This document shows positions 61,640 to 61,775 of a stretch of 64,000 nt of DNA, piece after piece. Location: the NCBI RefSeq assembly GCF_003334305.1, contig NZ_QOWS01000006.1; one strand, given 5' to 3'. Every line of letters begins with the position of its first letter. The first letter of the stretch is position 1. The notes under the pieces were generated by a model. It searched no databases, was not told where the DNA came from, and saw only the letters and a program-made list of their open reading frames with translations. The translations under genes were made by a program, and so were the position numbers. The stretch comes from Escherichia coli. Lineage in GTDB: Bacteria > Pseudomonadota > Gammaproteobacteria > Enterobacterales > Enterobacteriaceae.

Positions 61640-61775
61640 GAGGTCGTTTCCCCTCACCCCGGCCCTCTCCCCAAAGGGGCGAGGGGGAAAACAATGCCGG
61701 ATGCGCTTTGCTTATCCGGCCTACAAAATCGCAGCGTGTAGGCCAGATAAGACGCGTCAGCGTCGCATCAGGCGT
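61640..61775. repeat. GC-rich palindromic unit plus two REP elements (BIME)
   Basis: ccctctcccc-aaa-ggggcgaggggg palindrome, then gccggatgcgctttgcttatccggcctac and gtaggccagataagacgcgtcagcgtcgcatcaggc. Confidence 0.55.

Follow-up and report, generated by a model that had tools for sequence, protein, structure and literature searches.

What a G/C-rich palindrome is doing between araA and araD, in an otherwise compact operon, is the question that this locus raises. The initial annotation placed the palindrome next to two REP sequences and read the ensemble as a composite intergenic repeat rather than a simple terminator. The window, that is, the whole stretch of Escherichia coli DNA that was analysed, is 64 kb long, and the feature studied is the araA-araD spacer. 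On the (-) strand, the araA coding sequence (L-arabinose isomerase, 61796-63298) is followed by that of araD (L-ribulose-5-phosphate 4-epimerase, 60932-61627), and the spacer between them occupies 61628-61795 (168 nt). The araD ribosome-binding site AGGAG lies at 61633-61637 (-), and the ATG at 61625-61627. A query with 61400-62000 matched all of the complete E. coli genomes (5426/5426), and this segment was 100% identical to several complete genomes, e.g. strain E2865 (NZ_AP018808, 68208-68808).

The palindrome ccctctcccc-aaa-ggggcgaggggg was present as quoted in the initial annotation and reads CCCTCTCCCCAAAGGGGCGAGGGGGAA on the + strand at 61663-61689. It is imperfect, since CCCTCTCCC and the reverse complement of GGGCGAGGG differ by one T/G mismatch. 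A third block, ccctcaccc on the + strand at 61651-61659, had been overlooked, and the unit is a three-block motif rather than a simple hairpin. On the mRNA (-) strand, from 61685 down to 61650, the motif reads CCCTCGCCC-CTTTG-GGGAGAGGG-CCG-GGGTGAGGG-G. It consists of a pyrimidine block (block 1, CCCTCGCCC, 61677-61685), loop 1 (CTTTG, 61672-61676), a purine block (block 2, GGGAGAGGG, 61663-61671), loop 2 (CCG, 61660-61662) and a third-strand purine block (block 3, GGGTGAGGG, 61651-61659), all on the (-) strand. Block 1 has two alternative pairing partners, block 2, with a single G.A mismatch, and block 3, with a single G.T/G.U wobble. An inverted-repeat search likewise paired the outer blocks, 61647-61660 with 61676-61689 (14 nt, 86% complementary). 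When the triplet register was drawn by hand, the predicted triplets (G*G:C, A*A:T, and T*A over the mismatch) were consistent with a purine-motif triplex.

Judged from its sequence, the palindrome corresponds to two blocks of the three-block element BoxC, an enterobacterial G/C-rich interspersed repeat with the layout C-block, G-block, G-block. The descriptions of BoxC and PIT reportedly go back to Bachellier et al. in the 1990s and to Hoyne and Maher in 2000-2002. BoxC (1990s) and PIT element (potential intrastrand triplex; Maher's group, 2000-2002) are earlier names of TMECO, the consensus of which is 5'-CCCTCNCCC N3-6 GGGNGAGGG N3 GGGNGAGGG[G/T/C/-]-3' (PMC4666352). This published consensus was matched exactly, as a regular expression, at 61651-61685 (-), with the final G at 61650. 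The 36-nt core CCCTCGCCCCTTTGGGGAGAGGGCCGGGGTGAGGGG (61650-61685 (-)), which is of type B with one mismatch, was identical to MG1655 TMECO no. 3, the copy that is listed as 'type B mm' in Table 1 and that was used for in vivo DMS footprinting (PMC4666352). The subtypes are assigned by loop 2 (TTA, type A; CCG, type B), and 'mm' denotes a mismatched triplet (PMC4666352); the copy in the window, with CCG as loop 2 and a G.A mismatch between blocks 1 and 2, is of subtype 'B mm'.

The araD-araA spacer of strain IAI1 (NC_011741) is also 168 nt long, and its orthologous motif lies at 67131-67096. These coordinates were predicted from the araD offset and then matched by a table entry, and a pattern search agreed. 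The entry, with an identical sequence, is listed in Table S8 as TMECO no. 198 (PMC4666352). K-12 is without an ara copy of BoxC. The element and this exact locus are therefore already known, both being listed in the 2015 catalogue (Holder et al., PMC4666352), and an arrangement that had been called unusual turns out to be an ordinary one of the BoxC/PIT/TMECO family. The copy agrees with that family in its consensus, three blocks, loop lengths, type-B CCG loop, one mismatch, intergenic position (zero overlap with annotated CDS) and occurrence in many copies. It differs in context only: it is inside the araBAD operon on the mRNA-sense (-) strand, abuts a BIME-2 unit, ends its core 22 nt from the araD ATG and has 6 extra nucleotides at its junction.

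That the sequence is a repeat rather than unique, as had been proposed, was borne out by a search with a 57-nt query, which found 94,463 places in 5422 of 5426 E. coli genomes, with a median of 19 and a maximum of 36 per genome and with 32 in E2865, which is identical to the window segment; the search was permissive (E-value limit 10), so that these counts are an upper estimate of family size. The published numbers of TMECO, from a study of 56 strains, differ widely, from 25-30 (IAI1, SE11, E24377A, O26, O111, O104 and W) through about 20-23 (K-12 and B) and 10-11 (O157) down to 1-2 (CFT073, UTI89 and E2348/69; Holder et al., PMC4666352). BoxC is also among the E. coli stem-loop repeat families of Petrillo et al. 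(2008, PMC2267715), with 22 members under a 50-nt model, and the earlier literature, as cited there, gives 56 bp and 32 copies.

The identical 36-nt core was found at yagE-yagA, cpsG-wcaJ and ugpB-ugpA. The top non-ara copies aligned to positions 1-48 of the 57-nt query and stopped there, which indicates that the repeated unit is about 48 nt long (61647-61694 (-), with a T-rich leader TTGTTTTCC and an AAA tail) and that the junction CGACCTCTC is specific to the ara locus. A unit of about 48 nt agrees with the 50-56 bp cited for BoxC. No donor copy sharing the right-hand flank AAACGACCTCTC was found with the 57-nt query across the 5426 genomes. Seven other copies at five E. coli loci were read (yagE-yagA, cpsG-wcaJ, ugpB-ugpA twice, lldD-trmL twice, and lptG-yjgR), and the downstream flanks of the copies were unrelated to one another. 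A T-rich leader (tTTTtCC) was common to the type-B 'mm' copies and a cGATCGGTC leader to the type-A copies. Several copies were situated within operons, just before a start codon (ugpB-ugpA, cpsG-wcaJ).

A palindrome arising by chance in G/C-rich spacer DNA was also considered. The isolated 57-nt segment folded as DNA with -12.8 and -11.4 kcal/mol on the two strands, energies that were not exceptional against shuffles (z = -1.2 and -0.7, respectively), and to this extent the hairpin, not significantly beyond composition-matched shuffles, could pass as a product of base composition. Fold energy is not distinctive here because any order of C and G runs folds well. However, the 24-nt palindrome (3 mismatches allowed), which occurred once in the 64-kb window, appeared in 0/100 dinucleotide shuffles, and the two-block pattern (3 mismatches allowed), which also occurred once in the window, appeared in 2/100 dinucleotide shuffles (mean 0.02). 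Being nearly absent from the shuffles, the palindrome and the two-block pattern are non-random sequence. Together with the identical core at other loci and the many related places per genome, these data leave chance with a vanishingly small probability, and that explanation is refuted. The significance of the element rests on its membership in a repeat family, not on folding energy.

The two REPs reported beside the palindrome were found directly after it on the + strand, at 61695-61724 and 61738-61773. By comparison with the REP consensus sequences, we take the former (GTAGGCCGGATAAGCAAAGCGCATCCGGCA, (-)) to be y-type and the latter (GCCTGATGCGACGCTGACGCGTCTTATCTGGCCTAC, (-)) to be z2-type; the two, separated by a 13-nt linker (61725-61737 (-)), presumably make up one BIME-2 unit. 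BIME-2 consists of z2 and y REPs in tandem, and its copy number at a locus differs among strains (PMC3333891). The spacer segment GTAGCCACATCAGGTATGTAAC after the araA stop codon (61774-61795 (-)) is probably a decayed y REP tail; Escherichia sp. MOD1-EC7003 and E. albertii read GCCGCATCCGGCATTCA at this position. Base pairing between this segment and the beginning of the z2 REP was predicted. At gathering thresholds over the whole window, Rfam gave zero matches in the araA-araD spacer. At a permissive E-value the spacer matched naRNA4 only, a REP-derived family (15.9-28.9 bits; gathering score, 59.5), with sub-threshold matches on both REPs, and the C/G element itself had zero matches even under these permissive settings. 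Elsewhere in the window, Rfam matches at or above the gathering score were located at 10098-10250 (-), 8636-8713 (+), 26017-26069 (+) and 54661-54740 (-), and the four families were sok antitoxin RNA, tpke11, ES003 sRNA and naRNA4 (REP-derived RNA).

Both neighbours are 30-40-nt palindromes with a GTAG (CTAC) foot, and they resemble REP/BIME-2 in the z2 and y pair, the short linker and the 1-4 tandem 85-bp units that vary by strain. In contrast, the C/G palindrome has neither the foot nor the REP consensus, is made of three blocks instead of one imperfect palindrome, and varies independently, and its separateness from the REPs, already recognised in the initial annotation, was thus confirmed. 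Among Escherichia, the ara spacer changed in 85-bp steps with one to four BIME-2 units in tandem: 114 nt with one unit in AVS0790 and E. albertii, 199 nt with two in O157:H7 and 537-20, 284 nt with three in K-12, ABWA45 and an Escherichia sp., and 369 nt with four in 'E. coli' SCPM-O-B-8794. BoxC was absent from all of the 114-, 199-, 284- and 369-nt alleles compared, and the window has one unit plus BoxC.

If the C/G palindrome and the two REPs were one composite BIME variant, they would move or evolve as a block. Their direct adjacency, the BoxC leader beginning one base past the foot of the y REP, is what such a unit would look like, and every BoxC-bearing ara allele seen has exactly one BIME unit. 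Nevertheless, the BIME unit was present without BoxC in 3790 genomes, in 1-4 tandem copies, and no REP sequence was detected in the flanks (25-40 nt upstream and 30-40 nt downstream) of the seven BoxC copies at five other loci. REP and three-block BoxC occurred together in 0/78 spacers of other species, and the palindrome is without the GTAG/CTAC foot and the REP consensus. A composite unit is thus very improbable and already largely refuted. Of the proposal of a composite repeat rather than a simple terminator, the rejection of a terminator stood, a scan having returned zero sites, whereas the composite part fell with the genomes that have the BIME without BoxC. By sequence comparison, the arrangement is a juxtaposition of two unrelated repeat families that vary independently.

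The alleles themselves show how the BoxC copy is placed in the spacer. The empty allele reads ...GCATCCGGCA-CGA-AGGAGTCAAC-ATG (junction GGCA-CGA-AGGAG), and the filled allele of the window reads ...GCATCCGGCA-(TTGTTTTCC...GGGGAAA, 48 nt)-CGA-(CCTCTC)-AGGAGTCAAC-ATG, a net difference of 54 nt. The junction at 61638-61646 (-) is made up of CGA, which is present also in the empty allele, and CCTCTC. The latter (61638-61643 (-)) comprises 6 extra nucleotides between CGA and the araD Shine-Dalgarno (SD) sequence, which were absent from the empty allele and from other BoxC copies, and it is predicted to be able to form a small hairpin with the SD sequence (GAC.CU...GGAGUC). No target-site duplication was observed at the ara site when the filled and empty alleles were compared, and the extra nucleotides and the missing duplication are an unclean insertion footprint.

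With a junction-specific query, the BoxC junction was present in 1566/5426 complete E. coli genomes (~29%), and the empty junction GGCA-CGA-AGGAG in 3790/5426 (~70%), so that the two accounted for 5356 genomes. The empty junction was also found in E. albertii, in Escherichia sp. MOD1-EC7003 and in the divergent 'E. coli' SCPM-O-B-8794. Given the empty site in these three lineages, parsimony indicates that the ara copy of BoxC is probably a derived insertion gained within E. coli. About 1569 genomes were at least 99% identical to the window over 601 nt, which suggests that the filled state is one allele of a single origin. Import from another genus was ruled out, the flanking araD and araA being 96-100% identical to those of other E. 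coli. Like MITEs and similar small mobile repeats (e.g. ERIC/IRU), the copy is a short, palindromic, interspersed sequence that does not code for protein, and its filled and empty sites segregate in the species, but it differs from them in having no transposon-type terminal inverted repeats and, at the ara site, no target-site duplication. No transposase is known for BoxC. For TMECO, no association with mobile elements was found by Holder et al. (PMC4666352).

Situated in this way, the BoxC copy would be co-transcribed and carried by the araBAD mRNA. An RNA fold of the araA-araD transcript, proposed in the initial annotation, predicted a stable hairpin of -28.4 kcal/mol, although such energies are high for C/G-run-rich sequence whatever the base order (DNA fold z = -1.2). 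Block 1 was paired with block 3 via the G.U wobble and block 2 was in the loop; the alternative pairing of block 1 with block 2, in a rough hand-drawn version, gave -5.6 kcal/mol. A sequence unique in the genome and lacking predicted stable structure had been named as the outcome that would speak against a repeat; the element was found to be multi-copy and, as RNA, is predicted to fold.

A role of this hairpin in intrinsic (Rho-independent) termination or attenuation ahead of araD was weighed first on its resemblance: like intrinsic terminators, BoxC is a G/C-rich stem-loop in transcribed intergenic RNA, here in an intercistronic spacer. Unlike them, it has no U-tract: the hairpin is followed on the mRNA strand by AAACGACC, not a U-run, and on the opposite strand by AAAACAATG. 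The gene downstream of it, araD, needs co-transcription and requires read-through. Scanning of 61300-62100 on both strands found zero terminator-like sites and zero promoter-like sites. According to the summary in PMC4666352, PIT elements acted neither as promoters nor as terminators in the published tests, left RNA polymerase unaffected, and blocked DNA polymerase in vitro. A terminator is extremely improbable on these grounds, and this explanation, too, is refuted. BoxC might instead be a functional intercistronic RNA element that, together with the REP hairpins, impedes 3'-5' decay or provides a processing site, and thereby sets the AraA:AraD ratio or modulates araD translation in carrier strains. 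The predicted hairpin is stable and stands 22 nt from the ATG, other copies are likewise found just before start codons within operons, as at ugpB-ugpA and cpsG-wcaJ, the araA-araD spacers of 10/78 other species have three-block BoxC-like motifs at 19-33 nt from the ATG of araD, and REP/BIME sequences in operons have been described as mRNA stabilisers and attenuators (PMC2267715).

Against such an RNA role, the predicted accessibility of the SD sequence and of the AUG was equal with and without BoxC. The predicted probability that the araD SD sequence is unpaired was 0.387 with BoxC, and 0.385 and 0.344 in the one-unit and three-unit alleles without it, respectively. About 70% of E. coli genomes are without BoxC and their araD is unchanged. 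The distance and orientation of PIT/TMECO relative to ORFs are inconsistent (PMC4666352), and the published tests, within the compass of that summary, point the same way. The orientation of the paired copies in other genera is uninformative, since a rev...fw pair reads alike on both strands. Position is the sole positive support for a functional RNA role, which we consider unlikely. A translational switch by SD occlusion, taken up as a candidate in its own right, was dropped, SD accessibility being equal between alleles.

At the DNA level, the strand competent for a purine-motif triplex would be the non-template strand of araBAD. Oligonucleotides of type B mm formed a stable purine-motif intrastrand triplex in vitro by CD and NMR, purine-motif triplexes do not arise in RNA, and DMS footprinting in vivo did not detect a triplex (PMC4666352). 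The GC skew of the + strand was +0.027, and a positive value suggests that the + strand is the leading strand; in that case the triplex-competent strand would be the template for leading-strand synthesis. The most plausible occasions for a transient triplex or hairpin would be replication and transcription induced by arabinose. The sole documented correlate of TMECO loci is a structural variability between strains above that of control intergenic regions (PMC4666352).

In the RNA, BoxC would fold stably (about -28 kcal/mol) into a hairpin in which block 1 pairs with block 3 or, alternatively, with block 2. This hairpin would neither terminate transcription nor change the predicted accessibility of the araD SD sequence, and BoxC would therefore behave as a near-neutral passenger. 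We infer that the copy at ara is most likely such a co-transcribed, near-neutral passenger repeat. Its position 22 nt from the araD start, and the BoxC-like motifs at comparable distances in 10/78 other species, could also mean selection or targeting rather than neutrality.

The araA-araD spacers upstream of araD matches were recovered from 78 other Enterobacteriaceae species. REP-like palindromes were present in 40 of the 78, three-block BoxC-like motifs, mostly in inverted pairs, in 10, and either no such elements or simple or two-block C/G hairpins in 28. The BoxC-bearing spacers were those of Pseudocitrobacter, two Enterobacter spp., an Enterobacteriaceae isolate, K. oxytoca, K. spallanzanii, Kluyvera sichuanensis and 'Klebsiella' indica. 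In 10/10 BoxC-bearing spacers, the distance between the end of a copy in the C-G-G orientation, which is that of the window, and the ATG of araD was 19-33 nt, compared with 22 nt in the window. It is conceivable, if quite unlikely, that the araA-araD spacer is a preferred site of BoxC landing or retention across Enterobacteriaceae and that the E. coli copy was gained independently and recently. If that were true, BoxC would be targeted to, or selected at, sites just before intra-operon ribosome-binding sites, where it would tune distal-gene expression or mRNA decay, and the segregating E. coli alleles would be a natural experiment on BoxC spread.

Taken together, the C/G palindrome at the ara locus is, in all likelihood, part of a BoxC copy, a derived E. 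coli insertion that would be co-transcribed without terminating transcription, as a near-neutral passenger. The discovery value is small: descriptions of the family date back to the 1990s, and the locus is in the 2015 catalogue. How the three-block motif is distributed among taxa has already been published as well. The locus is of modest value as a clean example of BIME-2 and BoxC independently reshaping one spacer of a textbook operon. Because araBAD can be switched at will, it is also a useful place for testing the effect of BoxC on mRNA fate, genome stability and acquisition.
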